Both the position numbers and the translations under genes were made by a program. This document shows, in pieces, positions 14,156 to 64,000 of a stretch of DNA of 64,000 nucleotides (the stretch's first letter is position 1; each line of letters opens with the position of its first letter). The notes beneath the pieces are model-generated. The model was not told the DNA's origin, did no database searches, and saw only the letters and a list, made by a program, of their open reading frames with translations. Source of the stretch: Cyclobacteriaceae bacterium (GTDB taxonomy: Bacteria; Bacteroidota; Bacteroidia; Cytophagales; Cyclobacteriaceae); NCBI GenBank assembly GCA_051155775.1, contig DAXETV010000046.1, positions 12,750-76,749 on the forward strand. Reading direction: 5' to 3'.

Positions 14156-14284
14156 ATGACTTCAGAACCAGACGACCAGAAACCACCACATTTTAAGTCC
14201 TGGAAGCAGGTTTACATTTATGTTTTAATTAGTCTTGGGGTTGTTGTTTTTCTTCTTTATTTATTTAGCATTTCTTTTACATGA
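14156..14284 (+). CDS. 42-aa single-TM protein translationally coupled to the symporter (not in ORF track)
   Basis: Hand translation: MTSEPDDQKPPHFKSWKQVYIYVLISLGVVVFLLYLFSISFT. It starts 1 nt after the PIG-L stop, and its TGA overlaps the symporter ATG (ATGA). Confidence 0.4.
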   Translation: MTSEPDDQKPPHFKSWKQVYIYVLISLGVVVFLLYLFSISFT

Positions 14285-19936: not shown

Positions 19937-20139
19937 TACTGCAAGATTAACAAAATACATGTGATAAAATAAAAAGGTCGGAACCACCGACCCATTTATT
20001 ATAATACAGTATGAAGAAGTTAGTATTAATTACGTGGACTCATTGAAAAAGTTAAAAAATTATTTGAATTATCATATTTATAAACTAATTTAATAATCTG
20101 ATTAATTCTTAGTAAGTAAAAAAGGATTGAGTGTATCCT

Positions 20140-46254: not shown

Positions 46255-46328
46255 GCCTCCTTAGCTCAGCTGGCCAGAGCAACTGACTTGTAATCAGTAG
46301 GTCGTTGGTTCGAATCCGACAGGGGGCT
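46255..46328 (+). tRNA. tRNA-Thr (anticodon TGT)
   Basis: Acceptor GCCTCCT/AGGGGGC, D arm GCTC-AGCTGGCCA-GAGC, anticodon stem ACTGA/TCAGT with loop CTTGTAA, T arm GTTGG-TTCGAAT-CCGAC, discriminator T. No encoded CCA. Confidence 0.9.
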
Positions 46329-46373
46329 CTTGATAATCAAGCAGTTACAAAATGTATCTGCTTTTTTTATGCC
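46321..46373 (+). repeat. copy A of imperfect direct repeat (tRNA-Thr 3' end plus terminator-like flank)
   Basis: AGGGGGCTCTTGATAATCAAGCAGTTACAAAATGTATCTGCTTTTTTTATGCC; compare copy B. Confidence 0.5.
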
Positions 46374-46680: not shown

Positions 46681-46761
46681 ATCTAATAAAAGCAACCTGG
46701 TTACATCTTTAAATAATTACGATATTTTTACAGATTGTATTTAGTGAAATCGAGTATTCCC

Positions 46762-49628: not shown

Positions 49629-50429
49629 ATGTTCTTAAGCAGGTGTGTTTATGTGTTTCTTATTTGCCTGATCCTGTTGTCTTGCAAAGATAAAGTTATC
49701 TGTCCTGCATTTCAGAGTACCTATATCCTTGATGATAGCATCAGGGAAGCTTATTTTTCATACTTCAGAGAGGATTCACTTCCAAAAGAGACGCCATGGG
49801 TAAGAAAAAATAAGTATGGCATTATGAAAAGGGATCCGTATTGGGTGAAAAATTATAAACTGAAAACCGCTCCTATGGAAAATGTTTTGAGGCCTGATCC
49901 TGAAGAAGTAGCAGACGAAGGAGAGTTTTATGAGGAAGATTTTATTGCTGATTCTCTTGATTTAGAAAGTGAATTTGCTGAAGAACCGGATATTCAAAGC
50001 GAAGAGCCTACCGATCTGATTGCATCATCTGATACAGTACCGGCTCCAGTTATCCCTGATACATCCACATATAAAGAAGCCAGGTTTTTATATGGCTATA
50101 AATTAGATGATAATTTTAATTACGATCAGGTTTACTACAATAAATATTTCGGCAAATTCCTGGTTGATACCGTTGAGATTGGTCCTGATCCGGCTTTAAT
50201 GGACTCTTTAGCGAAAGCCGCAGGTGATACCACATCAATGCTTGATTCGGGTAACGTTGGTTTTTTTCAAAGTATCCTGAATTTTTTTGAGGGAATCTTT
50301 GCTAAGAAAGAAAAAGGTAATGACGGCCAGGAAGATGTTGAAGAGGAAGAGGCACTTGAGGAACTTTTGGATGCTGAAGAAGAACCACTACCTGACTTTG
50401 AGGAGGAAGGTGATGGGAATGATAATTAA
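49629..50429 (+). CDS. hypothetical lipoprotein with highly acidic C-terminus
   Basis: Signal with LILLSCK lipobox-like Cys. C-terminal Glu/Asp-rich tail. Confidence 0.4.
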   Translation: MFLSRCVYVFLICLILLSCKDKVICPAFQSTYILDDSIREAYFSYFREDSLPKETPWVRKNKYGIMKRDPYWVKNYKLKTAPMENVLRPDPEEVADEGEFYEEDFIADSLDLESEFAEEPDIQSEEPTDLIASSDTVPAPVIPDTSTYKEARFLYGYKLDDNFNYDQVYYNKYFGKFLVDTVEIGPDPALMDSLAKAAGDTTSMLDSGNVGFFQSILNFFEGIFAKKEKGNDGQEDVEEEEALEELLDAEEEPLPDFEEEGDGNDN

Positions 50430-50438
50430 CAAACTAAT

Positions 50439-53204
50439 CTAAACGACCACGTTTACTATCTTTTTCGGAACAACGATTACTTTTTTAGGATTTTTACCGG
50501 CTAACCATTTTTGAATAACCTCGGAAGCTAAAACCTGTTTTTCAATTGCTTCTTTAGGCATATCTAAGGGGAAAGTCATTTTAGCCCGCATCTTTCCATT
50601 TACAGAAACAGGGTACTCATGCGATTCTTCAATTAGGTATTTGGAGTCATATTGAGGAAATTCAGCATCATTGATGGTAGTGTTGTGGCCCATTCTATGC
50701 CATAGCTCTTCTGTAATGTGTGGCGCAAAGGGGGATAAAATGATGGTAAGCGGCTCTAATATTTTTCGCTTTTTACATTTCAGTGAAGTAAGTTCATTAA
50801 CTGCAATCATAAATTGACTGACTGAAGTATTGAGTGAAAGGTTTTCAATGTCTTCTCCAACTTTCCTGATGGCTTGATGCAGAACTTTAAGCTCCCTGGA
50901 TGTCGGCTCTTCGTCTGAAATTGAAAAAATTTCACCGGAAAAGAACAAGTTCCAGTACCTCTTTAAAAATTTATAGACACCGTCAATACCATTGGTGTTC
51001 CACGGTTTGAATTGCTCAATGGGACCCAGGAACATTTCGTATAACCTAAGGGTATCAGCACCATACTTAGCTATGATGTCATCAGGATTGACCACATTGA
51101 ATTTGGATTTTGACATTTTCTCAACCTCTGCCCCACAGATATATTTTCCCCCCTCTAAAATAAATTCAGCATTTATAGCCTCTGGCTTGAATTTTTTAAA
51201 AGCTTCAATATCCAATTCATCATTTTCCACGAGGTTAACATCTACATGAATGGCGGTAGTTTGATATTGTTTTCTTAATCCATAGGATACATATTTGTTT
51301 TCGCCTGTTAGCCGGTAGACAAAGTTTGAGCGTCCCTGAATCATGCCCTGATTGATTAGTTTTTTGGCATATTCATCAACACTAACATAACCAAGGTCGA
51401 AAAGTATTTTAGTCCAAAAGCGGGAATAAAGAAGATGTCCCGTGGCATGTTCTGACCCTCCAAGATACAGATCCACCGCTTGCCAGTATTCCTGAGCTTC
51501 TTTGCTTACAAATGCTTCATTATTATCCGGATCCATGTAGCGGAAGAAATACCAACTAGAACCTGCCCAGCCTGGCATGGTGGTTAGTTCAAATGGGTAT
51601 TCTCCTTTATATTTCCAGCCTTTGGCCCGGCCAAGTGGAGGCTCACCTTCTTCAGTAGGAAGAAAAGCATCTACATTGGGTAATTTAAGGGGAAGTTCTT
51701 CATCAGGGACTAAATGGGGTACACCATCTTTGTAATAAACAGGAAAGGGCTCTCCCCAATACCGTTGCCTGCCAAAGATGGCATCACGCATTTTATAATT
51801 GACTTTAGCTTTTCCAATATTGTTTTCCTCCACATATTGGATGGCTTTTTCTATGGCATCTTTAACTTCCAGGCCATCCAGTAAGCCTGAATTGATCATC
51901 TTGCCCGTCTTGGCATCATTTGCTCCCTGCTCCAGGTCAGTCCCTTCAATCACGGGAATGATGGGAAGATCAAAATGTTTTGCGAACCGAAAATCTCTAT
52001 CATCAGAAGCAGGTACCGCCATCACTGACCCTGTGCCATAACCGGACAGCACATAGTCAGCAACCCAGATCGGTATCTTTTCCTGGTTGAAAGGATTAAC
52101 AGCATAAGAACCCGTGAATACCCCTGAGATGGATTTAACATCACTCATACGATCCCTCTCCGAGCGATTGATGGCCATCTCAATATATTTTTTCACTTCT
52201 TCATGCTGCTTATCGGTGACCAACTGGTTGATCAGTTCACTTTCAGGAGCCAGGGTCAGGAATGTGACCCCGTAAATTGTGTCTATACGTGTGGTGAAGA
52301 CCCTGATTTTTAGATCCTGATCAACCACCTGAAAGTCCACTTCAGCACCTATGGATTTGCCAATCCAGTTGCGCTGCATTTCTTTGATGGGTTCCGGCCA
52401 GTCTATTCTTTCCAACCCTTCAAGCAAGCGCTCTGCATAGGCTGTGGTCCGCATGTTCCACTGGGGCATTTTTTTCTTCACTACCGGATGGCCGCCACGC
52501 TCAGAGAAGCCGTCCTTCACCTCATCATTGGAAAGTACGGTTCCCAGTTCCGGGCACCAGTTGACCGTAGTATCTGCAAGGTAAGTGAGGCGGTATTTCA
52601 GAAGTATCTTCTGTTTTTCTTTTTCACTGAAGGCCTGCCACTCATATGCTTTAAAGGACGGCGTATCCTCGCTGCAGTGGGCTTCTATACTTTCATTGCC
52701 TGATTCCTCGAGTGCTCTGATCAGGGTATCGATTGGTTCGGCTTTATCAGCTTTTAGATTATACCAACTGTTATAAATGACTTTAAATAACCATTGGGTC
52801 CATTTGTAGTAAGAGGGATCGCTGGTACGGACTTCCCTGTCCCAATCGTATGAGAAGCCCATAGACCGGAGCTGCTCTTTGTACCTTTTAATGTTATTGT
52901 CTGTGGTAATGGCCGGATGTTGACCAGTCTGTATGGCATACTGCTCTGCAGGCAACCCAAAAGCGTCAAATCCCATGGGATGGAGTACATTAAAACCTTT
53001 AAGCCTTTTATAGCGGGCCACGATATCTGAGGCTATATAACCCAGTGGATGGCCCACATGCAACCCTGCCCCTGAAGGGTAGGGGAACATGTCCAGAATA
53101 TAAAATTTGGGTTTGTTATTGTTTAGATGGGTTTTGTAGGTATTGTTTTTAATCCAGTAGGACTGCCATTTTATATATAAACGATCAAAACTTGTGTCTG
53201 ACAT
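50439..53204 (-). CDS. leuS: leucine--tRNA ligase
   Basis: HVGHPLGY (HIGH) and KMSKSK motifs. 921 aa with a CP1 editing domain. Confidence 0.95.
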
Positions 53205-53240
53205 GTAAAGATACAGACTGACTTATTTGTGAAAAGTGAA

Positions 53241-53402
53241 TTAACTATAATATTGACCTGTGGTGAAGCTTACATAGGTAGGTTCAAAACCATTTCCGCC
53301 CTTAGGAAGCGATTCAGTCATAGAAGCATCCATCGGTTGAATCTCAGGAGTATTCCAGACTTTTTTATATGATTTAATAGTGTCTAATCTTTTCATCATC
53401 AT
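53241..53402 (-). CDS. candidate lasso-peptide precursor (A), 53 codons, not in ORF track
   Basis: Hand translation of the minus strand: MMMKRLDTIKSYKKVWNTPEIQPMDASMTESLPKGGNGFEPTYVSFTTGQYYS. It starts in a +1 frame inside the last 29 nt of the cyclase gene. Aromatic-xxPx(I/L) leader motif (WNTPEI), Thr-Glu-Ser junction, single acidic residue in the putative core, C-terminal Ser. Confidence 0.6.
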   Translation of the reverse strand: MMMKRLDTIKSYKKVWNTPEIQPMDASMTESLPKGGNGFEPTYVSFTTGQYYS

Positions 53403-55203
53403 ATTTTTTACAAAAAAAGTACATTAAATATTGTTTCGCAAGTTTTCCTGGTTCAATATTATCAAAATTATTATAATATTTGATTATTCTATTGTGATCT
53501 ACTATTTTATTTAGATTATTATTAACAGATATGATTTTATGATTTTCAAATATTTGTTCTTTTTCCCTTTTATGAACCATATGGAGTTCTGGTGTATTAA
53601 AACCTGTTTTTTGATTTCTATTTATTATATAAGTGGGTAATAAATCTTTAAATATTTTCTTAAATATATCCCTTTGACTATAAAAAATTGTATAAAGTAA
53701 AGAAGTTTGTGAAAGAACAGCACGAATTAACTTACGGTCAAACATTGGGTACCGGTATTCTATCCCAAAATAATCTGATGTGTTAGCGTTATTGGTAAAA
53801 AAATTATTGTGGATATAAACTTCAAGCGTGCCAATCATTCGATTTATATCAGTATTTGATTTATGTCTTTTCAACATAACCCTGGTTATTTTTTTACGAA
53901 CTATCTTTTTATATCTTTTTTTTAAAGGTATTAGTTTATCATAATTTATATTAAAGTGGAATAAGGTGTTGTAATATATCCTCATAACCAATTTTATAAT
54001 TGGAATCGGTAACCACTTAGTCTTCGATTTATGGTTCATTTTATACCTTTTTGTAACGCATTGATCACCACCCATTCCTGATATAAGAGCAGACACACCC
54101 TTTTTATTAGCTTTTTCAAATAAGACCTGTGAAATAACGGCACTTTTGCTGTTAGGGACACCGGCGTTCAATTCCAGTGATCTTTGTATTTCAATCCAAT
54201 AGTTTATATGATGGTCTTCATGAATATATTCATGTTCAAATTTATTTGGGTAGAATTTTAAAAAAGCGTTAACATAATCGAATACATCATCAGTATCTTT
54301 ATTCAGGATAGCATCTTTGGTATTATGGGAAAAAGTAAAAATTTTTTCTTGATCGCTGAGCGGAAGTTTTTTTAAAATAGCGCAAATACTCGATGAATCT
54401 AACCCACCACTTAGTTCCGCACCAACAGCTCCCCATGATCTGGCTCTTTTTTTTACAGCTTCCTCAAACAAATAATTAATCTCATCCATGTATTCAGGCA
54501 CATTGCTGGATCTTTGATTAACTTCATTTTCTAATGACCAATAAATTGATTTATAAATCTGAGTATTTGACGGTAGAGTCAACCATTCGGCGGGTAGAAT
54601 AGGAAAGATTTCTTTAAAGTAGGTTTTATCAAATGGAATAATTTTTGGGGCAATATGTTCTAAAATAGCATCATAATTAACCGTCTTTTTAACAAATGGC
54701 AGGTTAATAATACACTTTACTGAAGAAGCAAAAATGAAATATCCTTTATCTTCATAATAAAATAACGGTTTAATACCCATATGGTCCCGGACGCAAAACA
54801 GCTCTTTTTTACTGTTATCCCATATAGCAAAAGCAAAATCACCTTCCAGGTATTTTGGACTCTCCTTACCCCATTTTTCATAAGCTTTTAAGATGAAATG
54901 TGCGTCTGCCATTTTATTGGCGGTTGATACTTCAATATTTAATTTTGATATAAGCTCTTCCCGGTTATCTATCCTGCAATCTGCTACAATGATATTTCCA
55001 GATGATTTATCGATGTTGGGGAGACTAATGAACTTTGATTCGGGTGTATTATATCGATGTCTCTGTCCAAGAACAATATTGGAATTTTCCAGGATATTTT
55101 CTTCGTGATGGAACCTCGTAGTCGAATTTTCCAACATGGTTTTAACATCCCTGGTATTAACTTGAGTTTTATTCTTATATAATATTCCACATATAGTACT
55201 CAT
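53374..55203 (-). CDS. asparagine-synthetase-like lasso peptide cyclase (C)
   Basis: AsnB fold with PP-loop ELSGGLDSSSICA. The N-terminus is MSTICGI, so the Cys is not residue 2 and there is probably no Ntn glutaminase activity. Sits next to the B2 and B1 genes. Confidence 0.8.
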   Translation of the reverse strand: MSTICGILYKNKTQVNTRDVKTMLENSTTRFHHEENILENSNIVLGQRHRYNTPESKFISLPNIDKSSGNIIVADCRIDNREELISKLNIEVSTANKMADAHFILKAYEKWGKESPKYLEGDFAFAIWDNSKKELFCVRDHMGIKPLFYYEDKGYFIFASSVKCIINLPFVKKTVNYDAILEHIAPKIIPFDKTYFKEIFPILPAEWLTLPSNTQIYKSIYWSLENEVNQRSSNVPEYMDEINYLFEEAVKKRARSWGAVGAELSGGLDSSSICAILKKLPLSDQEKIFTFSHNTKDAILNKDTDDVFDYVNAFLKFYPNKFEHEYIHEDHHINYWIEIQRSLELNAGVPNSKSAVISQVLFEKANKKGVSALISGMGGDQCVTKRYKMNHKSKTKWLPIPIIKLVMRIYYNTLFHFNINYDKLIPLKKRYKKIVRKKITRVMLKRHKSNTDINRMIGTLEVYIHNNFFTNNANTSDYFGIEYRYPMFDRKLIRAVLSQTSLLYTIFYSQRDIFKKIFKDLLPTYIINRNQKTGFNTPELHMVHKREKEQIFENHKIISVNNNLNKIVDHNRIIKYYNNFDNIEPGKLAKQYLMYFFCKKYDDEKIRHY

Positions 55204-55268
55204 ATCAGTTTATTTGATTTAAGGTAAAGGGAATTGTAAAGCGTGATAGGAGTCAATAGTTCATTCAG

Positions 55269-55712
55269 TCAGGAAAATTTTACCAGCAAATTAAAACCGT
55301 TTCCATTTCCGCCAGTAACGTGTATTTTTCCACTCCTTAGCCAGGCATGTGCATCTATAATTTTGATTTTAGAATTAGTAACGCCAAAATAAACGGTTCC
55401 TGGCAAACCCCTTAACCTAAGCATTAATTTACCTGCAATTGCTTGTGCAAGACATTTGCTATTCCACGGTAAGTTTTTACTTCCTATTTTAATGAACTTT
55501 GAAAGGAGATAAGACATTTTTTCTCTTTGAAAATCAAGCATGGATGGACTATCAACATTTTTCTCGCCAAGAATTTTAACGATTAGCCTAAAAGGAAAAA
55601 AAAATATTATTAACTCAGATAAAATCAAAAAAAATACAACCTCAGCTAATAATAGCTTATCCCTTAAGCCCAGTTGTAAAAATTTGATCACTATCCTAAC
55701 CAACCTAACCAT
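55269..55712 (-). CDS. lasso peptide leader peptidase B2 (transglutaminase-like Cys protease)
   Basis: 147 aa with NSKCLAQAIA (catalytic Cys) and IIDAHAWL (His), typical of McjB C-terminal-domain homologues. Confidence 0.8.
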   Translation of the reverse strand: MVRLVRIVIKFLQLGLRDKLLLAEVVFFLILSELIIFFFPFRLIVKILGEKNVDSPSMLDFQREKMSYLLSKFIKIGSKNLPWNSKCLAQAIAGKLMLRLRGLPGTVYFGVTNSKIKIIDAHAWLRSGKIHVTGGNGNGFNLLVKFS

Positions 55713-55722
55713 ATTAATATTT

Positions 55723-56595
55723 TCAAACTTTTTCTAATGGTATATGCTCGTTAATTTTCAAGTATTCAAGTTTTTCCATTACATGGCCGTGGTTTTTGGT
55801 TAGTTCATTTATTTGGTCTTTATTTAAATAGTCATTGAAAGTGCCAACTTTTCCATTTCTAAAAAAAGTCTTACAATATATCATTTTTTCACCAAATCCT
55901 TTTTCTTGTTCCTGTTTCTGAAGGGTGTCAATATTACTATTTTCAATGGCTTTGATGATTGACTTTTCATCATAATCTAGTTCTGCAAAGGCCACTGCTT
56001 CTGAGAAAGTCTTAAGCGGGTGATTTACCATGTCTTCATACTTTATTATTTTAACTGGGAATTCTTCGTGACAAGTCCAACTTAGATAATGACCACTCCA
56101 TGTTAAGAGTATTTGTCTTAATTGATTGGTCTGTCTTTTGCCTTCTCCACAAAACGAAAATTTGGGATTATTTAAAATTTTCAATGTGTTTTTAAAATTA
56201 TCATGACCCGAATGATGTGCAAAGGATATACATATATCCAGGGGATTTCTTACAAAATATAAGGCCTTTTTTGTAGCTTCTTTAGGGATTAGAGGTTTGC
56301 CATTTGGTAAATAAGTATAGGCATCATGTATTTTACAAAACCTTTTTTCCTTCAAAGATTTACTGAAATGAATATAAGCTTCTGGTCTTAATAAATCACA
56401 TTCGTCAGGAGATAAATCTCCACTATCATATCCCAGGGGTTCATCTAATAAATGACGTGCACTGGCAATTGGTCCTCCAATTAAATTATTAATATCAACC
56501 GGATTGTTGGATTTCTTCAGCAGGTTGGTTAAAAAAACCCGGAACCAGGTATTACCGGATTTAGGATAAGAAGCCAACCAGATAATATTACCCAT
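55723..56595 (-). CDS. PAPS-dependent sulfotransferase
   Basis: 5'-PSB loop SYPKSGNTWFR and 3'-PB motif FVRNPLD. Confidence 0.8.
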   Translation of the reverse strand: MGNIIWLASYPKSGNTWFRVFLTNLLKKSNNPVDINNLIGGPIASARHLLDEPLGYDSGDLSPDECDLLRPEAYIHFSKSLKEKRFCKIHDAYTYLPNGKPLIPKEATKKALYFVRNPLDICISFAHHSGHDNFKNTLKILNNPKFSFCGEGKRQTNQLRQILLTWSGHYLSWTCHEEFPVKIIKYEDMVNHPLKTFSEAVAFAELDYDEKSIIKAIENSNIDTLQKQEQEKGFGEKMIYCKTFFRNGKVGTFNDYLNKDQINELTKNHGHVMEKLEYLKINEHIPLEKV

Positions 56596-57508
56596 CGATT
56601 AATTCAATATTTAGGTGATTCAATAATTCACCAATCATTTTCGGTAAAAAGGAAATTTCATTTCCTGGTTTTAAAATCCTGTACATTGGTACAACACTTG
56701 CCAATTTCATACTCAGTTCGAAATGAGGTTTTATAATGTCCAGCCCTTTTAAGAATTGAAATCTAAACGTGTGGTTTTTTAATGCTTGAAATTTTGCAGG
56801 TCCAGTAATGTCATTAATAGATATTTCAGGTTTATTGTGGTTGTTTAAAATAAAAATCCGATCAATAAGCGATTCATTTTTTGAATAAAAATCTTCAGGA
56901 TTTATTTTTATACATCGTTTTTCTAATGCCTCACGAATTTTTTCGAAATCATTTGGCTCCATTTCAAGAGCTTTTAGTGAATCGATCCACAATTTCATTT
57001 GAGGATATCCGGAAATAACCCGTGGAACACCCTGTTGATCAAAGCTTATTAATGAAATATCATCATTAATTACTTTAAAACCTTTATTTCTAAAAGCAGC
57101 GGCAGTAGTAGATTTACCTGCACCAGATTTACCAGCAAACAGAACAGCTTTCTCATCAATTAGTACAGAGCTTGCATGAAGGACTAATTGCTTTCTTTGT
57201 AGCAACAAAGCTCCAAAAGCAGAACCCAAAAGAAATAATCGTATATCTTTATCGTCACCACCCAAAGGTTCTATTGTAATTCTGTTTCCGTTTTCAACAA
57301 AATATTTGGCGATATTATCTACTTTCAGTAAGAGTTGATTAGGCGAAGCCCAGTATCTTATTCCCTTTGATCTGGCATTTTTTAACAGTTCAGGTACGCT
57401 TCCAAAGGAGATTGTTATGTCTTCGTTTGTAAGATTTGCTTGAATGAATTCTGGAATAAATAATTCAGATAAAATATTAAGACCAAAAGCATGATATTTA
57501 TAAGACAT
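56588..57508 (-). CDS. HPr-kinase-related (HprK C-terminal-like) peptide kinase
   Basis: P-loop FAGKSGAGKSTTAAAF in about 300 aa. This gene type accompanies phosphorylated lasso peptides (paeninodin-type clusters). Confidence 0.7.
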   Translation of the reverse strand: MSYKYHAFGLNILSELFIPEFIQANLTNEDITISFGSVPELLKNARSKGIRYWASPNQLLLKVDNIAKYFVENGNRITIEPLGGDDKDIRLFLLGSAFGALLLQRKQLVLHASSVLIDEKAVLFAGKSGAGKSTTAAAFRNKGFKVINDDISLISFDQQGVPRVISGYPQMKLWIDSLKALEMEPNDFEKIREALEKRCIKINPEDFYSKNESLIDRIFILNNHNKPEISINDITGPAKFQALKNHTFRFQFLKGLDIIKPHFELSMKLASVVPMYRILKPGNEISFLPKMIGELLNHLNIELIDG

Positions 57509-57510
57509 AA

Positions 57511-57792
57511 TTATTGAGATACTGAGATTAAATTTTTTTCATTAAGATGATTAAGAAATTCAAATACTTCTTTTGTGCATTTTTCTTTACTTACATCATA
57601 TTCTTGCAAGAGTGTATTTATAATATCAGAAATTTTTTTAGGATTTGATATCATTTCCCATATATCAGTTGCAATTGGATTCATCTTATAATATTCACCA
57701 TTATCGATGCTCATTAGCACGGCTTCATTGTCTAATTTACTTGAAATTTGATCCTCAGCCTGACGAACAATCATTTCTTCGGTTAAACTCAT
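57511..57792 (-). CDS. PqqD-family RiPP recognition element (lasso B1)
   Basis: 93 aa. ...EAVLMSIDNGEYYKMNPIATDIWEMI...EVFEFLNHLNEKNLI pattern of PqqD/RRE proteins. Confidence 0.8.
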   Translation of the reverse strand: MSLTEEMIVRQAEDQISSKLDNEAVLMSIDNGEYYKMNPIATDIWEMISNPKKISDIINTLLQEYDVSKEKCTKEVFEFLNHLNEKNLISVSQ

Positions 57793-57812
57793 TTATTCAA
57801 GATTATTATATG

Positions 57813-57820
57813 CAAATATA
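57813..57820 (-). promoter_or_regulatory. -7 box TATATTTG (minus strand) upstream of the lasso operon
   Basis: Exact TAnnTTTG, 20 nt upstream of the B1 ATG, in the 102-nt divergent intergenic region. Confidence 0.4.
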
Positions 57821-57894
57821 TTTAGGCTATCCATTTATCATAATGAATTTTGTCTTAGGTATTAATCTTTACAGACATGATAGATATTAAATAA

Positions 57895-59079
57895 ATGCAA
57901 AAAGATATAAATATAATTAATTTTCCCATTGAAACTCAAATATTGATAGAGCTCCTCAAGGATTTGCTTCAAGATCATTGTGCTAATAAATCTTTTTTCA
58001 AATTTCAGGATACAAAACACCCTTTAAAATTATTGCAACGACATAGGTTGAGCAGCTATTTTCACAAGATCCAGTCCAGGCACGAAATGGACCAAACACT
58101 CAGAGATCAATTAAAGATTAACTATTTAAAAAATATAAAATTTCAATTAGCCTTAGTAAAAGAGTTTCTCGAGATAAAAAAGTTGTTGGATGTTAATGAA
58201 GTTAAATTTTTAACCCTTAAAGGGCCAGTGTTATCTCACATCCTGTATGAGGATCCGTACACAAGAAATTTTAAGGATATTGATGTGTTGATATCACAGG
58301 AAGACATTGAAAAAACTGAAGGTATTCTGATTAATGCAGGTTTTGAGGTTCTAGATGATATTGTATTCAAAGGTCTTGATAAGAATAAAAGAGATTATTT
58401 ATTAAAATCCCGGACGCATATGGTTTATAGAAAAACCAGTAGTCAAGGGAAACCACTCATTTTAGAATTGCATTGGTCCTTAGTGAGTCCGTTTTCCTTA
58501 TTTCCCTTTTCTTTTCAGTATTTATGGGAAAATTCAATGGATGTGACCATTCATAATGTCCAAATAAAAACCATCAATCACGAATTAAACTTTGCATATC
58601 TTCTTATTCATGGATCTATACATCAGTGGGTGAGGCTGCAATGGCTTGTTGATATAATAAATTATGAGAAAAAAGAAAGCTTAATCGATGAATTTGAACT
58701 AAAGAAAATAATTAAAGAAGGCCAACTTGAAATATCTGTAGCGCAGGCACATAATTTATATCAATTACTCTTTGGGATAGAAAGTAGGTTTTCACAATTA
58801 CATCATAAAAATTGGAACAGTAGGATAATAACAAATTTTGCTCTTAGTGAAATCTCGAGAGTAAATCAATATGATAGTTCTGAATACAATAACTTAAATA
58901 GCTTTATTAACTTGATTCTGCTTAAAAATGATCTGAAACACTACATAGAGGTGATGAAGAACTTTATTATTTCATTGCAGGATTGGAAGTTAGTTCAATT
59001 ACCATCTTTTATGTTTCCATTATATGCAATTGGCCGACCGATATTTTATTTAATGAGAAAGTTTAAGGTTAAAAGGTAA
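57895..59079 (+). CDS. nucleotidyltransferase-family protein (NTP_transf_5-like)
   Basis: LTLKGPVLSHILYEDPYTRNFKDIDVLI core, with the G-x-x-x...D-x-D arrangement of uncharacterised nucleotidyltransferases commonly found beside lasso kinases. Confidence 0.65.
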   Translation: MQKDINIINFPIETQILIELLKDLLQDHCANKSFFKFQDTKHPLKLLQRHRLSSYFHKIQSRHEMDQTLRDQLKINYLKNIKFQLALVKEFLEIKKLLDVNEVKFLTLKGPVLSHILYEDPYTRNFKDIDVLISQEDIEKTEGILINAGFEVLDDIVFKGLDKNKRDYLLKSRTHMVYRKTSSQGKPLILELHWSLVSPFSLFPFSFQYLWENSMDVTIHNVQIKTINHELNFAYLLIHGSIHQWVRLQWLVDIINYEKKESLIDEFELKKIIKEGQLEISVAQAHNLYQLLFGIESRFSQLHHKNWNSRIITNFALSEISRVNQYDSSEYNNLNSFINLILLKNDLKHYIEVMKNFIISLQDWKLVQLPSFMFPLYAIGRPIFYLMRKFKVKR

Positions 59080-60221
59080 TCCACTATCTTATCCAATAAA
59101 TAAAGGTATAATGCCAGAAAGAAGACGTTGATATGAATGCCAAACCAAAAGAAAGTAATGGTTGATAGGGTACACAACAGTATTAGGTAGCTCATTAAGC
59201 CTATGAGCTGTTTCAGAAATGGATATCTATGCAGGTATTGGCTTATAATTTTTTCAATAACATCTTGAGGATAGAAAACAATCCAGGATAAAAAGAAATA
59301 GCCAATGAAAAGATAGCCCCAAAAAAGAATATCAACATATACATGCTGATTCTGAAGGTTTACTAGAGCGTTAATTAAAATGACGGGCCCACTGGTAATT
59401 TCGAATATTGTTTCATGCATATCCCGGTCAAAGAAATCACCTACCACTACAATTTTATTATTGACAAATTCAACGACATCCTCTTCAGGCAAATAGAGCA
59501 GTTCTCCAAGATTGATTGGATTAAACCCCTTTTCCTGATTCGATATATCTTTTTGAAGGATATTGAACTCCAGAATGAAATGATTTAAAGTGGTCCATTT
59601 GTCGAATCTGACGAATGGGCCTGCTTTGCCTGCTTTATCATTACATATATTTTCGTGGACGATCAGCGGTGTTAGCTTTAAGGAGTCATAATATAACTGA
59701 TATTTGTAAACCCCATCAAAAATACTTCCGGTCAAATAATCGGACAGTCCGGTTTGTACATTAGTGAAAATGATTTCTTGAGGCGTGTTATCTTCATTAA
59801 GATGTGAGGAAAGAATAATATCGTTACGCTTTGATAGTTGCTGTCCCAACAAGCTATCAAATGATGTTTTACCTAAAAAATTTATATCACAGATGATAAA
59901 CCTGGTCTCTACATCATTTCGATTTAAAATCTCAAAAAATCTTGCCAGCTTCTCTCTGTCGGTAATGGTCTGGTTGCCAATAGGAAAGCCATAGCTATCC
60001 ACCTTATCTATCAGGGCCAGGTCATTAGAGACATTGATTAATGCGAAATTTTTAGATGGAGGAATTTCTCTGAAGGGTAACTTCAACCAGGAAGTAATCC
60101 ATATCATCATTTTTTCATCCCCGGCCAACCAGGGTAAACTCATCAACCAGAAGGTAAGCAGAAAAAGTACACCAGTGTTTACAAGGGAACCTACCCAGAT
60201 AAAAAGTTTACTTCTTTTCAT
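59046..60221 (-). CDS. CHASE2-like membrane sensor protein without output domain
   Basis: N-terminal TM. Extracytoplasmic domain with FALINVSNDLALID...YGFPIGNQTITDREKLARFFEIL...FIICDINF (CHASE2-like D-x-D and WPxxR-equivalent pattern). Three to four C-terminal TM helices, then the protein ends. Confidence 0.5.
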   Translation of the reverse strand: MKRSKLFIWVGSLVNTGVLFLLTFWLMSLPWLAGDEKMMIWITSWLKLPFREIPPSKNFALINVSNDLALIDKVDSYGFPIGNQTITDREKLARFFEILNRNDVETRFIICDINFLGKTSFDSLLGQQLSKRNDIILSSHLNEDNTPQEIIFTNVQTGLSDYLTGSIFDGVYKYQLYYDSLKLTPLIVHENICNDKAGKAGPFVRFDKWTTLNHFILEFNILQKDISNQEKGFNPINLGELLYLPEEDVVEFVNNKIVVVGDFFDRDMHETIFEITSGPVILINALVNLQNQHVYVDILFWGYLFIGYFFLSWIVFYPQDVIEKIISQYLHRYPFLKQLIGLMSYLILLCTLSTITFFWFGIHINVFFLALYLYLLDKIVDYLLTLNFLIK

Positions 60222-61002
60222 TGGATAATTGAGCTAGTGCCAACTCTATACCCATCAACTGACAGCGATCATACAATTCATCCAAGAACATATAAATATC
60301 TTCTGCTTTATTGGTTTTTGTGATGGAAACAATTTCTTTTAAAAAATTGAGTTCTATGTATTTAAAATTTATTGGGCATAAAAAAGTAGATTTTTGATCG
60401 AGCGAATTGTAATAAAAAAGGCGGTATTCCTCAGGTGTTTGAGGGTTAATGGGTAGGCCATCAATAGATAATAATTCATTTTTTATTATTATAAGTGTGT
60501 CTTTATTGTAAGAAAGCTTTTTATTAACCAACTCATCCATATAACGATATTGGATATAAAAGAAATTTTTTTCATTCATTGGATAAGCGGCGCTTGACAC
60601 ATTAATTGTAAGCCTATCACCGACAAAGGCAAATTCATTCCCGAAAAATTTTTTAAAGTCCAGGTCATTATTGATTCCTCCGGAACGGGTACTCATCCTT
60701 CCACGCATAGGCTTTATTATTGATTTTAATGCATATTCAAGGTCGTTTGAGTTGCTATTTTCTTGCTCAGGTTTTAATATAAATCTTCCTTTATCAGGAT
60801 CTAAAACTGCAGCTATTGATTTTGGGTCTCCAAATTTCAGTATTTCATCTGATGATATTTTTTGGCCTCTGGTTAAGGTTTTGTTATTCGAAGCCAGCTT
60901 GACAATTCCCTTTACATGGATGACAACATATTCCTGGGCTGATATTTGACTGGAGAATAATAAGGCCTGAAATAATAAGAGACATTTTAACGGTATTTTC
61001 AT
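60208..61002 (-). CDS. secreted hypothetical protein (weak FecR-like N-terminal beta segment)
   Basis: Signal peptide LLLFQALLFSSQISAQ. VVIHVKGIVKL...LTRGQKISSDEILKFGDPKSIAAVL resembles FecR-domain starts. Overlaps the downstream CHASE2-like gene by 14 nt. Confidence 0.4.
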   Translation of the reverse strand: MKIPLKCLLLFQALLFSSQISAQEYVVIHVKGIVKLASNNKTLTRGQKISSDEILKFGDPKSIAAVLDPDKGRFILKPEQENSNSNDLEYALKSIIKPMRGRMSTRSGGINNDLDFKKFFGNEFAFVGDRLTINVSSAAYPMNEKNFFYIQYRYMDELVNKKLSYNKDTLIIIKNELLSIDGLPINPQTPEEYRLFYYNSLDQKSTFLCPINFKYIELNFLKEIVSITKTNKAEDIYMFLDELYDRCQLMGIELALAQLSNEKK

Positions 61003-61004
61003 GA

Positions 61005-64000
61005 TTAATAGATTGTAAAATCCCTTTTTAAGTTTTCTTCCCTTGAGGTGGGTACTTGCTTGCCATCTGATAATCTTACTACCTGTTCTGTGACATATTG
61101 TTGAATCTCTGTGATGGAGTATTTTCTATCCCGGTTAAGGTCCGCTCTACGGGTCTCTATCCCCTGTAAAATGCATGAAGTAAACAATCCATTAGAGGAA
61201 TTGACACCTTCAAGTGCGAATTCAGTTGCACCGGCAGCAGAGATAACTGTAGCACCGGTTCCTTTTTTTAAATCACCAAATAATGTTTTTGATAGCTCGA
61301 GCGTGTTTTCTAATCCAAAACTGTTTTCTTTCATTTTCACCAGCTTACCGGTAGATCTGAAAGCCACAGCTCCGGTTTGCTGAACTTCGTTATTAGCATC
61401 TTCTATCTCGTCCTCATCTAATTCACCGGAATGGCAGGTATCCATAAAGAGTGCCTTATTTCGACTTTTTATTCCATCAAGAATCTCTTGTAAATCCTCA
61501 TAAGGGAGTCCTCTGCCTGCCGGATTAGAAAAATCCATTTCATGGGTCGCAAAGTAATAATTGTATTCATCATCTAACACACCATGACCAGCAATGAATA
61601 TCAAAACAACATCATCGATATTCGCTTCTGATAAGAACTTTTTAAGGTCTAATATATTTGCTTTGGTCGCTTTATCATTTATGAGTGCTTTATGGTATAC
61701 ATTTTCGAATGAGGACGAGTTTTTTAATGTATTGATCAGATCACTGGCGTCCTTTGAAGCGAATGTTAGATTATAATTGCTTTGTTTGTAATCGGAAACG
61801 CCGATTGTTACCAGGTATAAACATGGTTTGTAATATGCCCCCACATATTTTATCTCAAAGCTTTCGGGGATAGATTCGAGACCACTTTTGTTGATTGCTG
61901 AGATTTTAATTTCATTTATACCGGAAGACAACTGTAAATCGATGGTTTCGCTCCATGATTGTAACGATTCACTACCTATATCCATTCCTTTTGAGCCAAA
62001 TACCGGTACATCATTTACGTAAACATGTATTTTTTTTAGTTCCTGATGGTTTCCGTCAGCAGCTATTGGTAATCTAAAATTTTGAGATTTGGTTACATAA
62101 GGAATTTTTTCATAATTAATTTTTACAGTAGGTAAATTGTAAGAACCTTCCAAATTATCTTCTGTAAATCCTAATCGTTTGAGCCTCTTCTTGTAAGCAG
62201 ACCTGTAAGAAGAAACCAGTTTGTCAGAAGCATAGCCCAGCCTTTCTGCCACAATATCCGGTCGGTTAAATTTTAATTCAACTTGTTGAAGGGGCAGTAT
62301 ATTACCATCATCTTTAAAAGCAATAGCCATGCTGGCATTTTTCGAAGAGGTGTAATAATAATCTGGCGTATAGGTGATGTAGTCCGAATTATTGATTAAA
62401 CACATACTTGCAACTTTCTTCTTTTGAGTGATATCATATAGGGTTATCTCACCTTGCCTATTGGTTGTGATCAGGTATTTCCCATCTTTACTGAAACATG
62501 CATCAGTTATTAAACCTATCTGATTGTCTTTTATGACCGCTCTATCTCCTTTGATTAATCTTAAAGAATATCCATCCCATGATACATGATAATCTTTATA
62601 ATCATACTTATCTTCTAAAGACACTTTAGTTTCTCCTTTTACCTTTTTTGATTTACCTGTTTTTCTATCATATAGCCTTACATCATCGTCACTTTTCAGC
62701 ATAGACATGCCTATTCCAGCATCGTCAGTGGATTTATATTTAGCGTAGATTTCGTTGGGGTTGCCAGAAAATTTCACCCAGGTAAATTCCTTATTCTTCT
62801 CTAGTATTGATTTTAGTAATCTGCCGTTTTTGAAATTCCATACTTTAAAAAAGCTGGTGCCGGGAGATGTTGTTGCTATATACTTCCCATTGTTGCTTAT
62901 GTCAATCTGATTTATATTTGGTGATCTGTCAAATTCCCTAACCAGTCTACCTGTAGTAATATCCCACATGGTCATGTTTTTTCTTTCAGAACCCACAAGA
63001 ATATGTTTTCCATCGGGCATGGCATCTACAGACAGCGCGGGCCTTACAAATCCCTCGAGTTTCCTGAATATTCTACCAGTCTCCATGTCCCAAAGCTTAA
63101 TTGAATGTTGGTCATCAGATGAGGCAGCAGTCTTATAATCCGGTGACATAGCTATTGAGTTTAGCCAGGCAACGCTTCCACCTTTGAATTCTTTAACCAA
63201 TGGTGGTTCATAGCCCTGGACCTCTTTCAACTTGCCATCAGGGAATTCAGCTTTTTCCATATCATATACATTGATGGAGTATTTTTTATTAAGTATGATT
63301 TTGGTTTGATCATCATTAAATACTGCCCGCGCATTAGAATAAGCGATCATCCATCTTTTTGGCTTTTTAGGATTTACAAACTTTTTGCCATCCGGGGAGA
63401 TGTCGACTAAGGAGACTGTTGAGTTGCCTGTTTCTTCTTCTTTGTCCTTGGCTGCAGCCATAGGCATGTACATATTTTGGGAGATTAAGACGGTTTTTCC
63501 ATCTTTCATAAACGCTATGTTACTGTAGTCAATGATGAAGAAATCAAGCATGTCCTTTCCGATGTTACCTTTTGCAATATTTGTAGCGATGGAAAAGCCA
63601 CTAAGCACACCATAAATGTAAGCCTTGGTCAGGCCTGAATTTTTATAATAGTTTAAAATATCATCAGTTTTTTTTCCATTTTCCAGATCCACGATAATCA
63701 ATTCAACATCATTTGTTTTTTGTCCTCCTACCACTGCTGTTTGTTGATTGGGATGAATGCTTATGGCTCTGATTTCTGAAGTAGCTGCTTCAATAGATTT
63801 TTCGGGTTTACCGGTGTTTATGTCCCATTTTTTTATTATTTTATCTTTGCCTCCTGATAGAAAAAAGAGATTGTTTTCATAAACTTCAATTGTATTAACT
63901 GCGCCTTCGTGGCCTTCGATGAAGTGAATGGGCTCATCTTTATTGTTCACATCCCAAACTATGATTTTTCCATCGGCATCCCCTGTAATAATTTTATTGC
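61005..64000 (-). CDS. WD40-repeat protein with C-terminal caspase (peptidase C14) domain (5' partial, continues right of window)
   Basis: Frame is open through 63951-64000 (...NKIITGDADGKIIVWDV...). Several GH...WD-type repeats (GHEGAVNTI...KKWD, SIKLWD, MTMWD, FKVWN). C-terminal caspase fold with His in FIAGHG (codon 61584-61586) and Cys in DTCHSG (codon 61434-61436). Confidence 0.8.
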   Translation of the reverse strand, partial: NKIITGDADGKIIVWDVNNKDEPIHFIEGHEGAVNTIEVYENNLFFLSGGKDKIIKKWDINTGKPEKSIEAATSEIRAISIHPNQQTAVVGGQKTNDVELIIVDLENGKKTDDILNYYKNSGLTKAYIYGVLSGFSIATNIAKGNIGKDMLDFFIIDYSNIAFMKDGKTVLISQNMYMPMAAAKDKEEETGNSTVSLVDISPDGKKFVNPKKPKRWMIAYSNARAVFNDDQTKIILNKKYSINVYDMEKAEFPDGKLKEVQGYEPPLVKEFKGGSVAWLNSIAMSPDYKTAASSDDQHSIKLWDMETGRIFRKLEGFVRPALSVDAMPDGKHILVGSERKNMTMWDITTGRLVREFDRSPNINQIDISNNGKYIATTSPGTSFFKVWNFKNGRLLKSILEKNKEFTWVKFSGNPNEIYAKYKSTDDAGIGMSMLKSDDDVRLYDRKTGKSKKVKGETKVSLEDKYDYKDYHVSWDGYSLRLIKGDRAVIKDNQIGLITDACFSKDGKYLITTNRQGEITLYDITQKKKVASMCLINNSDYITYTPDYYYTSSKNASMAIAFKDDGNILPLQQVELKFNRPDIVAERLGYASDKLVSSYRSAYKKRLKRLGFTEDNLEGSYNLPTVKINYEKIPYVTKSQNFRLPIAADGNHQELKKIHVYVNDVPVFGSKGMDIGSESLQSWSETIDLQLSSGINEIKISAINKSGLESIPESFEIKYVGAYYKPCLYLVTIGVSDYKQSNYNLTFASKDASDLINTLKNSSSFENVYHKALINDKATKANILDLKKFLSEANIDDVVLIFIAGHGVLDDEYNYYFATHEMDFSNPAGRGLPYEDLQEILDGIKSRNKALFMDTCHSGELDEDEIEDANNEVQQTGAVAFRSTGKLVKMKENSFGLENTLELSKTLFGDLKKGTGATVISAAGATEFALEGVNSSNGLFTSCILQGIETRRADLNRDRKYSITEIQQYVTEQVVRLSDGKQVPTSREENLKRDFTIY

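Follow-up and report, generated by a model that had tools for sequence, protein, structure and literature searches.

Seven open reading frames occupy positions 53241–59079 of the 64,000-nucleotide stretch of DNA analyzed here (hereafter the window), which belongs to a marine-type Bacteroidota genome of the Cyclobacteriaceae/Roseivirgaceae type. Six of them run head to tail on the minus strand and encode, in the direction of transcription, a PqqD-type RiPP recognition element (B1, 57511–57792, 93 aa), a putative HprK-like precursor kinase (K, 56588–57508, 306 aa), a PAPS-type sulfotransferase (ST, 55723–56595, 290 aa), a transglutaminase-like Cys protease assigned as leader peptidase (B2, 55269–55712, 147 aa), an asparagine synthetase homolog assigned as the lasso macrolactam cyclase (C, 53374–55203, 609 aa) and the precursor peptide (A, 53241–53402, 53 aa from the first ATG, or 51 aa from the third Met at 53396, where PGAP places the start); the seventh, a PsmN-like PF14907 nucleotidyltransferase (N, 57895–59079, plus strand, 394 aa), is transcribed divergently. 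All coordinates and strands, together with the junctions (a 2-nt gap from B1 to K, an 8-nt overlap of K and ST, gaps of 10 nt from ST to B2 and 65 nt from B2 to C, a 29-nt overlap of A with the end of C, and a 102-nt divergent spacer), agree to the base with those of the initial annotation. The cluster is flanked by leuS and has a GC content of 29–34%, against ~38% across the window. Within the spacer, which forms the control region between B1 and N (57793–57894), sigma-70-type promoter scans gave matches at chance level, and no significant promoter or terminator signals were detected at the cluster; a weak match to the Bacteroidota-type −7 motif, TATATTTG (TAnnTTTG), at 57820–57813 on the minus strand, ~21 nt upstream of the B1 ATG, is a tentative candidate for a B1 promoter element.

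Searches with HMMs upheld the initial domain assignments (PqqD, a weak Hpr_kinase_C, Sulfotransfer_1, Transglut_core3, Asn_synthase with GATase, and NTP_transf_5). B1 matches PqqD at 72 bits and passes the curated lasso model NF033536 (95.4 bits against a cut-off of 80). Its best PDB match is 9x90_B (E = 1.4e-14), PbaB1 of a paeninodin-like pathway, whose crystal structure was solved bound to the WxxPxL leader of PbaA; mapping the alignment onto the published contacts, we find that 10 of the 12 leader-contacting residues of PbaB1 are identical or conservatively replaced in B1. B2 carries Transglut_core3 (PF13471) and passes its curated lasso model (NF033537, 72.7 bits, cut-off 33). The initial annotation had counted the lack of a Cys-His-Asp triad in B2 among the results that would refute the lasso reading, and only part of the triad is recognizable: Cys87 (SKC) and His122 (AHAW) do fall in two conserved columns of an alignment of 24 B2 homologs, but no Asp or Glu follows His122 (Asn stands at His+14 and +16). 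Since this acidic column is likewise not conserved among the 24 related proteins, the missing residue does not refute the lasso assignment.

The best NCBIfam family for C is the lasso cyclase NF033535 (347 bits, under the cut-off of 525), and its named homologs are lasso cyclases, with only ~31% identity to anything outside its own genus and at most ~33%, over the best segment, to the cyclase of the comparison locus L002, a cluster of canonical gene order. As first described, C keeps its PP-loop (SGGLDS, residues 265–270) and lacks the N-terminal Cys; its sequence begins MSTICG, and with Cys absent from position 2 it has no N-terminal nucleophile. This start, and a score of 211.6 bits against the AsnB model TIGR01536 (cut-off 267.1), led us to reject an assignment of C as asparagine synthetase B.

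The precursor peptide divides into the leader MMMKRLDTIKSYKKVWNTPEIQPMDASMTE and the core SLPKGGNGFEPTYVSFTTGQYYS, or, if the leader is cleaved one residue further on, a core that begins LPKG. Its leader motif W16-N-T-P19-E-I21 (WxxPxI), unchanged in all four alleles from related genomes, conforms to the [Y/W]xxPx[L/V/I] pattern required of lasso precursors and opens with the Trp (WNTP) that characterizes the paeninodin-like subfamily, among whose precursors this residue is almost invariant. The leader spacing is that of the paeninodin-like PbaA (W−15, P−12 and a hydrophobic residue at −10, Leu in PbaA and Ile here), and the W, P, I and T spacing also equals that of the L002 and L005 precursors. 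Against NF033524 (paeninodin family lasso peptide) the precursor scores 14.3 bits (E = 0.025), below the cut-off of 27, and the L001 allele gives no match to this model. Across the four alleles the leader is near-invariant and the core hypervariable, its invariant residues being P3, K4, E10, Q20, Y21 and S23. Indeed, the cores of two otherwise identical strains are only 65% identical in DNA, and between L001 and L009 the DNA hypervariability begins exactly at the codon following M-T-E. The core holds a single acidic residue (Glu40 in precursor numbering), 11 residues past the conserved Thr; it is perfectly conserved in the four alleles, always equally far from the leader. Each of these alleles, like nearly all related precursors, ends in Ser, matching the published specificity of lasso kinases for a C-terminal Ser. 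Three of these features, namely the unusual position of the acceptor, the terminal Ser and core hypervariability, went unmentioned in the initial annotation.

The kinase matches PF07475 (Hpr_kinase_C, 24 bits) and TIGR04352 (38 bits) weakly, both under their cut-offs, but it carries a Walker A motif (GKSGAGKS, residues 126–133), scores 173 bits against the kinase of L002 (gene order A-C-K-B1-B2-N-D) and has homologs in 27 of the 93 lasso-cyclase loci; an HprK-like kinase paired with a C-terminal Ser on the core is what the paeninodin-like subfamily calls for. The nucleotidyltransferase (NTP_transf_5, PF14907, 153 bits, cut-off 31) has homologs in 14 of these loci and contains the motifs KGP (109–111) and DID (128–130), the latter corresponding to the metal site D134/D136 of PsmN, which needs both residues and attaches hexose to phosphate. 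The sulfotransferase (Sulfotransfer_1, PF00685, 73 bits; motifs PKSGNTW at 11–17, RNPLD at 116–120 and RNGKVGTF at 246–253) has as its nearest solved structures the glycopeptide-antibiotic sulfotransferases Teg14, Teg12 and StaL. In four other lasso loci, too, a sulfotransferase gene adjoins that of the kinase, and an APS kinase is encoded in one related cluster; the L012 precursor is devoid of Tyr although a sulfotransferase is encoded in the L012 cluster, which means that sulfation of Tyr is not general.

That the cluster has no ABC exporter, as originally observed, holds well beyond its borders: none lies within 33 kb of it or between 20030 and 64000, the nearest ABC_membrane plus ABC_tran gene being at 18119–20029. 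The dedicated exporter (D) of the paeninodin-like subfamily is thus missing here, whereas the related clusters L002, L010 and L011 carry one. Among the 60 best PDB matches listed for the S9 peptidase at 46717–49455, none is a lasso-isopeptidase structure. Counting against the lasso reading as a whole are the sub-threshold scores of C and the precursor, an acceptor at position 10 when Thr is placed at −2, a third catalytic residue that is not identifiable in B2, and the lack of an exporter.

Comparison with related genomes places the cluster, whole and in the same order beside leuS, in two further assemblies (L001 and L097) and partly in L009, with all seven reading frames intact in three independent assemblies. 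All cluster genes are under purifying selection: dN/dS is 0.10–0.22 for each enzyme gene (0.22 for C; 0.12 for leuS). The dS of the cluster resembles that of the flanking leuS, which indicates vertical inheritance and retention, and the recurrence beside leuS in relatives together with low dN/dS argues that the arrangement did not arise by chance. Three other genera have the conserved CHASE2 operon but no such cluster beside it.

We consider it probable that the locus functions as a lasso cluster of the paeninodin-like type (WxxP leader, split B) in a Cyclobacteriaceae/Roseivirgaceae-type genome; the split-B lasso RiPP assignment proposed at the outset is borne out by curated HMMs, the leader motif, the PbaB1 crystal-structure homolog and comparative genomics. 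We infer the chemical steps, their order and the cleavage site as follows. The B1 recognition element would bind the 51–53-aa precursor through W16-x-x-P19-x-I21, and the HprK-like kinase would phosphorylate the still linear peptide on the hydroxyl group of its invariant C-terminal Ser. B1 and B2 would then remove the leader beside the conserved M-T-E motif, and the AsnB-like cyclase would adenylate Glu40 and link it to the new N-terminus, a ring closure that would trap the aromatic-rich tail (Y/F/Y/Y). The PF14907 enzyme would probably place one or more hexoses on the phosphate in the manner of PsmN. The sulfotransferase would add sulfate, our best guess for its site being the conserved Tyr of the C-terminal Q-Y-x-S; this is the least certain step.

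The size of the ring depends on where the leader is cut. Lasso precursors are required to have Thr at −2 and Asp or Glu at core position 7–9, and the precursor departs from this rule: with Thr at −2 its sole acidic core residue falls at 10, so that either the ring has 10 residues or the cut lies one residue later. We slightly favor the latter (L/F1 to E9, a 9-residue ring with Thr at −3) over S/N1 to E10. A 23-residue core running from S/N1 to S23, with Thr at −2, Trp at −15 and residue 1 joined to Glu10, is nonetheless a tenable, if tentative, alternative, and would make this the first lasso macrolactam of 10 residues known from nature. It preserves exactly the leader register of the PbaB1–PbaA crystal and of the L002 and L005 precursors, Thr is at −2 in eight of the eight unambiguous WxxP precursors collected, and the onset of hypervariability right after M-T-E coincides with the cut it supposes. 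Moreover, Gly is common at core position 2 of WxxP precursors, such that the S-G of relatives is no argument against Ser1; in two other lineages Glu also lies 11 residues past Thr (L013b, GGPKGMTFPE; L011, QGGTYPGYGE); C is strongly divergent; and an engineered fusilassin with a 10-residue ring proves the chemistry feasible. However, characterized natural rings all have 7–9 residues and a natural 10-residue ring is without precedent. The longer ring also needs Asn1 in L009 and Gln1 in L011, which are, to our knowledge, unusual first core residues. In L011, the Trp register points to Gly1/Glu9 and hence Thr at −3, a placement that seems possible in this clade, and a cut one residue later yields canonical G/A/L/F starts and 8–9-residue rings in every member.

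Readings in which no lasso peptide is made fare worse. A silent or decaying relic, in the form of an accessory island that has no exporter and makes no product, is improbable: the missing exporter, the low GC content, the absence beside the CHASE2 operon in other genera and the want of significant promoter or terminator signals would suit such a remnant, but the reading frames are intact in independent assemblies, dN/dS is comparable to that of leuS with dS equal to the flanks, and the core alleles, though heavily diverged, retain both the C-terminal Ser and the acceptor Glu. Still less probable, and indeed very unlikely, is a linear phosphorylated or glycosylated peptide of the LPP type, with the cyclase inactive or irrelevant. 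A discrete recognition element, an HprK-like kinase and an NTP transferase do form the conserved LPP core, often beside lasso genes, and C scores under its curated cut-off; yet a SipW-like signal peptidase and a YxxP leader are the defining features of LPP clusters, which also have an MsbA-like transporter and lack both cyclase and B2, and the locus differs in every one of these respects, the only peptidase among its reading frames being B2. The selection on C, its retained PP-loop and the one invariant Glu at constant distance from the leader also weigh against a linear product. That C is instead a true asparagine synthetase, or an amidotransferase of another kind, in a neighborhood unrelated to RiPPs is hardly credible, since the generic Asn_synthase and GATase domains that are all Pfam returns for it, and its PGAP name (asparagine synthase-related protein), are outweighed by a far better score against the lasso than the AsnB model, by the missing N-terminal nucleophile and by an operon-like array in which B1 and B2 pass lasso models and a lasso-type precursor follows.

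The initial annotation regarded a Bacteroidota product with this tailoring set as chemically new, which overstates the case. Solved lasso structures do come from only three phyla according to the literature, but predicted lasso peptides have already been mined from Bacteroidota genomes, the PGAP annotation of the source MAG itself labels B1 and B2 as lasso proteins, and all three tailoring enzymes are published for paeninodin-like clusters of Bacillota (the HprK-like kinase and PF14907 nucleotidyltransferase as typical accessory enzymes, the sulfotransferase as an associated gene); only sulfation remains uncharacterized. With paeninodin of Paenibacillus dendritiformis and its Bacillota relatives, including pba of P. 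alginolyticus, the locus further shares the split B1/B2, the AsnB-like cyclase, the WxxPx[L/I] leader spacing and the C-terminal Ser. The cluster type is therefore known from Bacillota, and it is the Bacteroidota host and the misfit with the ring-size rule that set this locus apart. Its gene order (B1-K-ST-B2-C-A with divergent N, against A-C-K-B1-B2-N-D), with A placed after C, is unusual, as are the lack of an exporter, the divergent cyclase, the precursor below the NF033524 cut-off, an acceptor Glu one residue farther from the conserved Thr than in characterized members, and cores that differ between two otherwise identical strains. Pseudomycoidin (psm, Bacillus pseudomycoides) offers a second parallel in its kinase and PsmN-type nucleotidyltransferase acting on the C-terminal Ser, as by analogy they may here; unlike this locus, psm includes an exporter, and its paper makes no mention of a sulfotransferase.

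Closer to hand are uncharacterized Bacteroidota lasso clusters, namely L012/L013 (JGI 3300049783/3300060869), L010 (a Flammeovirgaceae MAG), L011, L003 (Cytophagales), L004 (Saprospiraceae) and L005, which share WxxP leaders, a C-terminal Ser or Thr, the kinase and often a sulfotransferase right after it. Their cyclases are only 25–36% identical to C, several of the clusters (L010, L011) bear exporters, and in most the acidic residue lies nearer to Thr by one position. In L012, as here, the cyclase gene is preceded by those for B1, B2, K and ST, and L013b has the core pattern xxPKG....E in common with the precursor of this locus.

The initial annotation's reading of this locus as a split-B lasso peptide cluster proved correct, as the curated B1 and B2 models, the leader, the structural homologue of B1 and comparative genomics bear out, and an ORF listing of 50000-64000 reproduced every one of its gene coordinates. 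The minus strand encodes the precursor A (53241-53402, 53 aa), the AsnB-like cyclase C (53374-55203, 609 aa), the leader peptidase B2 (55269-55712, 147 aa), the sulfotransferase ST (55723-56595, 290 aa), the HprK-like kinase K (56588-57508, 306 aa) and the PqqD-type recognition element B1 (57511-57792, 93 aa), and the plus strand the nucleotidyltransferase N (57895-59079, 394 aa). These coordinates agree with the junctions as described (a 2-nt gap between B1 and K, an 8-nt overlap between K and ST, gaps of 10 nt between ST and B2 and 65 nt between B2 and C, a 29-nt overlap between C and A, and a 102-nt divergent spacer between B1 and N). The leuS gene starts 36 nt past the precursor stop codon on the same strand, and G+C is 0.29-0.34 over the cluster (53-59 kb) versus approximately 0.38 for the window and 0.42-0.47 for the adjacent leuS. 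In the public annotation of the source MAG (HHP7242915-20), B2 and B1 are already named as lasso proteins, and the kinase and precursor are recorded as "hypothetical".

Both halves of the split B protein pass curated profiles: B1 scores 95.4 bits on NF033536 (lasso peptide biosynthesis PqqD family chaperone; cut-off 80) and B2, in which a third catalytic residue is not obvious, 72.7 bits on NF033537 (lasso peptide biosynthesis B2 protein; cut-off 33). The top model for C is NF033535 (lasso peptide isopeptide bond-forming cyclase) at 347 bits, under its strict cut-off of 525; the score of C on the genuine AsnB model, 212 bits, is likewise under the cut-off and well below 347. The PP-loop is retained in C as first described (SGGLDS, 265-270) and, since the protein starts with MSTICG, it lacks the N-terminal nucleophile Cys. 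Matches of K to HPr-kinase families (Pfam, NCBIfam) are weak; residues 126-133 form a Walker A motif (GKSGAGKS), and comparison of K with the kinase of related locus L002, whose cluster has the canonical order A-C-K-B1-B2-N-D (D, ABC exporter), gives 173 bits. ST carries the PAPS-binding motifs PKSGNTW and RNGKVGTF, and its nearest solved structures are Teg14, Teg12 and StaL, enzymes of glycopeptide antibiotic sulfation. N matches PF14907 at 153 bits, with a KGP...DID motif that aligns with the D134/D136 pair needed in the pseudomycoidin nucleotidyltransferase PsmN. Sequence searches of the PDB returned no solved structure matching B2 or N and marginal matches only for K (E≥0.02); the best match of B1 was PbaB1 (9x90_B, E=1.4e-14), from the paeninodin-like pba cluster of P. 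alginolyticus. When the leader contacts of PbaB1 are mapped onto B1 by alignment, 10 of the 12 are identical or conservative (Y35, M37, I40, I44, L61, Y65, V67, F79, L83 and L88), and the only two that differ (E75→K71 and Q79→E75) are positions described as poorly conserved in the PbaB1 study itself.

The precursor ORF consists of MMMKRLDTIKSYKKVWNTPEIQPMDASMTE followed by the core SLPKGGNGFEPTYVSFTTGQYYS, and its W16-x-x-P19-x-I21 motif and T29 have spacing identical to that of paeninodin-like leaders, in which the PbaB1-PbaA crystal structure places leader contacts at W-15, P-12 and L-10. It shows a weak, sub-threshold match to NF033524 (paeninodin family lasso peptide). The WxxP leader is the hallmark of the paeninodin-like subfamily, and HprK-like kinases and NTP transferases are described as typical secondary-modification enzymes of its clusters; the cluster belongs with this subfamily on account of its leader type, the structure class of its B1 and its accessory genes. 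It differs from paeninodin-like clusters in phylum, gene order, the absence of an exporter, a highly divergent cyclase, a B2 in which no third catalytic residue is obvious and an acceptor spacing at odds with either the Thr -2 or the ring-size rule. Solved lasso structures are limited to Pseudomonadota, Actinomycetota and Bacillota, in keeping with what the initial annotation had stated about phyla, so the product would be the first structurally characterised Bacteroidota lasso peptide. Bacteroidota are present among predicted lasso sequences, and a putative lasso cluster was pointed out years ago in the Bacteroidota symbiont Amoebophilus.

The cluster was found in only four assemblies: the window, a Roseivirgaceae MAG (L001), JGI 3300022725 (L097) and a 6-kb contig (L009). 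L001 and L097 hold the cluster in the same order as the window, flanked by leuS and a CHASE2 gene, and the L009 contig contains B2-C-A-leuS only. A precursor search over 5.8 billion protein clusters yielded only three close relatives, with the fourth allele obtained via cluster membership. Scanning metagenomes with a profile of the cyclase gave 80 loci, all with ≤36% identity to C, and the clade is therefore rare.

The four cores (SLPKGGNGFEPTYVSFTTGQYYS, SLPKGGPAAEPTYVTFSTGQYFS, SLPKGGPNPEPTYVTFTTGQYFS and NFPKSNPTPEASVPASIVSQYVS) follow a nearly invariant leader in 4/4 precursors and share a fixed length of 23 aa together with P3, K4, E10, Q20, Y21 and S23. In each, the sole acidic residue lies 11 residues past the conserved Thr. 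If the leader is cut canonically (Thr at -2, Trp at -15, counting back from the cleavage site), the acceptor is Glu10; a cut one residue later puts Thr at -3 and Trp at -16, makes Leu or Phe the first residue and gives a nine-residue ring. Characterised natural lasso rings all comprise 7-9 residues, a 10-mer having been reported solely as an engineered fusilassin variant, and the literature searched contained no natural 10-residue lasso ring, an absence that is not proof.

To weigh Thr -2 against Thr -3, WxxP precursors of related loci were collected. Eight of them (from L002, L003, L004, L035 and L068, and three in L005) fit Thr -2 with G, A, C or L as the first residue and a ring of 8-9 residues. 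A second group, within which the closest cyclase relatives fall, has T-x-[S/G/Q] and then G or A (two precursors in L010, and those of L012, L086, L013b and L011), and its rings would comprise 9-10 residues if Thr is at -2 and 8-9 if it is at -3. For L011, the position of the Trp by itself favours Gly1/Glu9 and Thr at -3, and the xxPKG....E pattern is common to the window core and L013b (TE/GGPKGMTFPE). L013b is a second lasso-type precursor in L013 (ending in WKKPTVKSLSGEETEGGPKGMTFPESTTAAYSLS; L013:4329-4466), encoded downstream of a DDE transposase and ~2.3 kb away from the cyclase gene; the L012 precursor, which sits beside a cyclase gene identical to that of L013, has its Glu one residue closer than in L013b. 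We consider a nine-residue ring slightly more likely than a ten-residue ring, and leave a small share of probability to neither. The computed masses for the window allele are 2394.117 Da in the nine-residue reading versus 2481.149 Da in the ten-residue reading. Such an acceptor spacing violates one of two rules that are built into genome-mining tools, Thr at -2 or a ring of 7-9 residues; whichever rule fails would give insight into the way B2 and C gauge their substrate, and scoring limited to 7-9-residue rings would mis-score clades such as this one.

The final residue of the precursor is Ser, the phosphorylation site of lasso HprK-like kinases on the linear precursor, and PsmN is known to add one or two hexoses onto phosphoserine. 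A sulfotransferase gene has previously been seen in Firmicutes lasso clusters, where the enzyme is uncharacterised. Over 93 cyclase-bearing loci, a kinase homologue occurs in 27, a nucleotidyltransferase in 14 and a sulfotransferase in seven; at least five independent loci, from different lineages, have the sulfotransferase gene immediately after the kinase gene or overlapping it (L012:3451-5231, L035:3352-5207, L037:3867-5837, L068:2107-4178 and window 55723-57508, each a kinase and Sulfotransfer_1 pair). The L011 cluster also has an APS kinase gene (13294-14190), which would serve as a source of PAPS, and together with the recurrent pair this suggests a functional coupling between phosphorylation and sulfation. 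Tyr is not the universal sulfation site, because the L012 precursor has none. The literature searched yielded no sulfated lasso peptide, which is not proof of absence. The cluster opens a way to study the sulfotransferase, the sole recurrent paeninodin-like accessory enzyme that lacks characterisation.

Between the window and L001, dN/dS is 0.11 for B1, 0.11 for K, 0.14 for ST, 0.14 for B2, 0.22 for C and 0.15 for N, compared with 0.12 for leuS, and dS is similar across the cluster genes and leuS. The low dN/dS and flank-like dS indicate that the cluster is old in the lineage and kept by selection; despite the low G+C, dS is the same for the cluster as for its surroundings, which places any acquisition before these lineages split. 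Between L001 and L009, identity is 99.9% for C and 100% for both leuS and the leader, yet their core DNA (L001:9892-9963 and L009:2294-2365, equivalent to 53241-53312 in the window) is identical at only 47/72 nt (65%), with 25/72 differing. This divergence begins at the first codon past M-T-E and stops ahead of the final Ser codon, and, judged from these alleles, looks like cassette-like replacement rather than point mutation. Sample names suggest that both assemblies derive from one shared study (SRP141376 / SRR7048221). Near-identical strains with very different cores would represent a natural core swap behind a fixed leader, useful for RiPP diversification and engineering.

The full combination, in which cleavage at Thr -2/Trp -15 is followed by an S/N1-E10 macrolactam made by the divergent cyclase, a C-terminal phospho(glyco)serine and a sulfate ester on a cassette-swapped core, is one that we put forward tentatively and regard as rather unlikely to hold in every part. 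If true, the ring would be the first natural lasso ring above nine residues, and the sulfate ester the first seen on any lasso peptide.

The CHASE2 protein (391 aa, 59046-60221) was considered as a missing exporter or immunity gene and ruled out, its operon being conserved elsewhere without lasso genes. It is encoded by the last gene of an operon (59046-63950, minus strand) that also encodes a 981-aa WD40-repeat protein ending in a caspase domain (Peptidase_C14) and a 264-aa secreted protein without family, with junctions of a 14-nt overlap or a 2-nt gap. The trio is conserved, with no lasso genes alongside, at ~50% identity in Reichenbachiella, Ekhidna and others, and is also present in Cyclobacteriaceae genomes; it resembles a signalling or caspase-type system, and the CHASE2 gene is not part of the lasso cluster. 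An S9 peptidase (46717-49455) was likewise rejected as the lasso isopeptidase, since no lasso-isopeptidase structure is among the 60 best PDB matches listed, the top ones being generic S9 enzymes, acyl-peptide hydrolases and DPP4. This plus-strand gene encodes a 913-aa fusion in which an S9 prolyl-oligopeptidase family part, with PD40 repeats, is joined to an FGE-sulfatase-like domain at the C-terminus, and is conserved in L001 and L097. The remark that an ABC exporter is missing stands for the 33 kb around the cluster. At that distance lies the window's only exporter-like gene of MsbA type, a 637-aa ABC_membrane+ABC_tran half-transporter (18119-20029, minus strand).

A search for island scars around the cluster found no integrase, transposase or notable flanking direct or inverted repeats; the sole tRNA in 40-64 kb, tRNA-Thr (TGT; 46255-46329, plus strand), is 7 kb away. 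Scans of the cluster for sigma-70 promoters and intrinsic terminators gave chance-level results, and a hairpin at 53312-53296 was disregarded as a terminator, being inside the precursor ORF. Two Bacteroidota-type -7 motifs (TAnnTTTG) occur on the minus strand, TATATTTG at 57813-57820, ~21 nt upstream of the B1 ATG, and TAATTTTG at 53463-53470, 61 nt upstream of the precursor ATG and within the 3' part of the cyclase gene; the background is ~0.5 sites per kb per strand, and both sites are hence weak. The latter might be an internal promoter raising transcription of the precursor.
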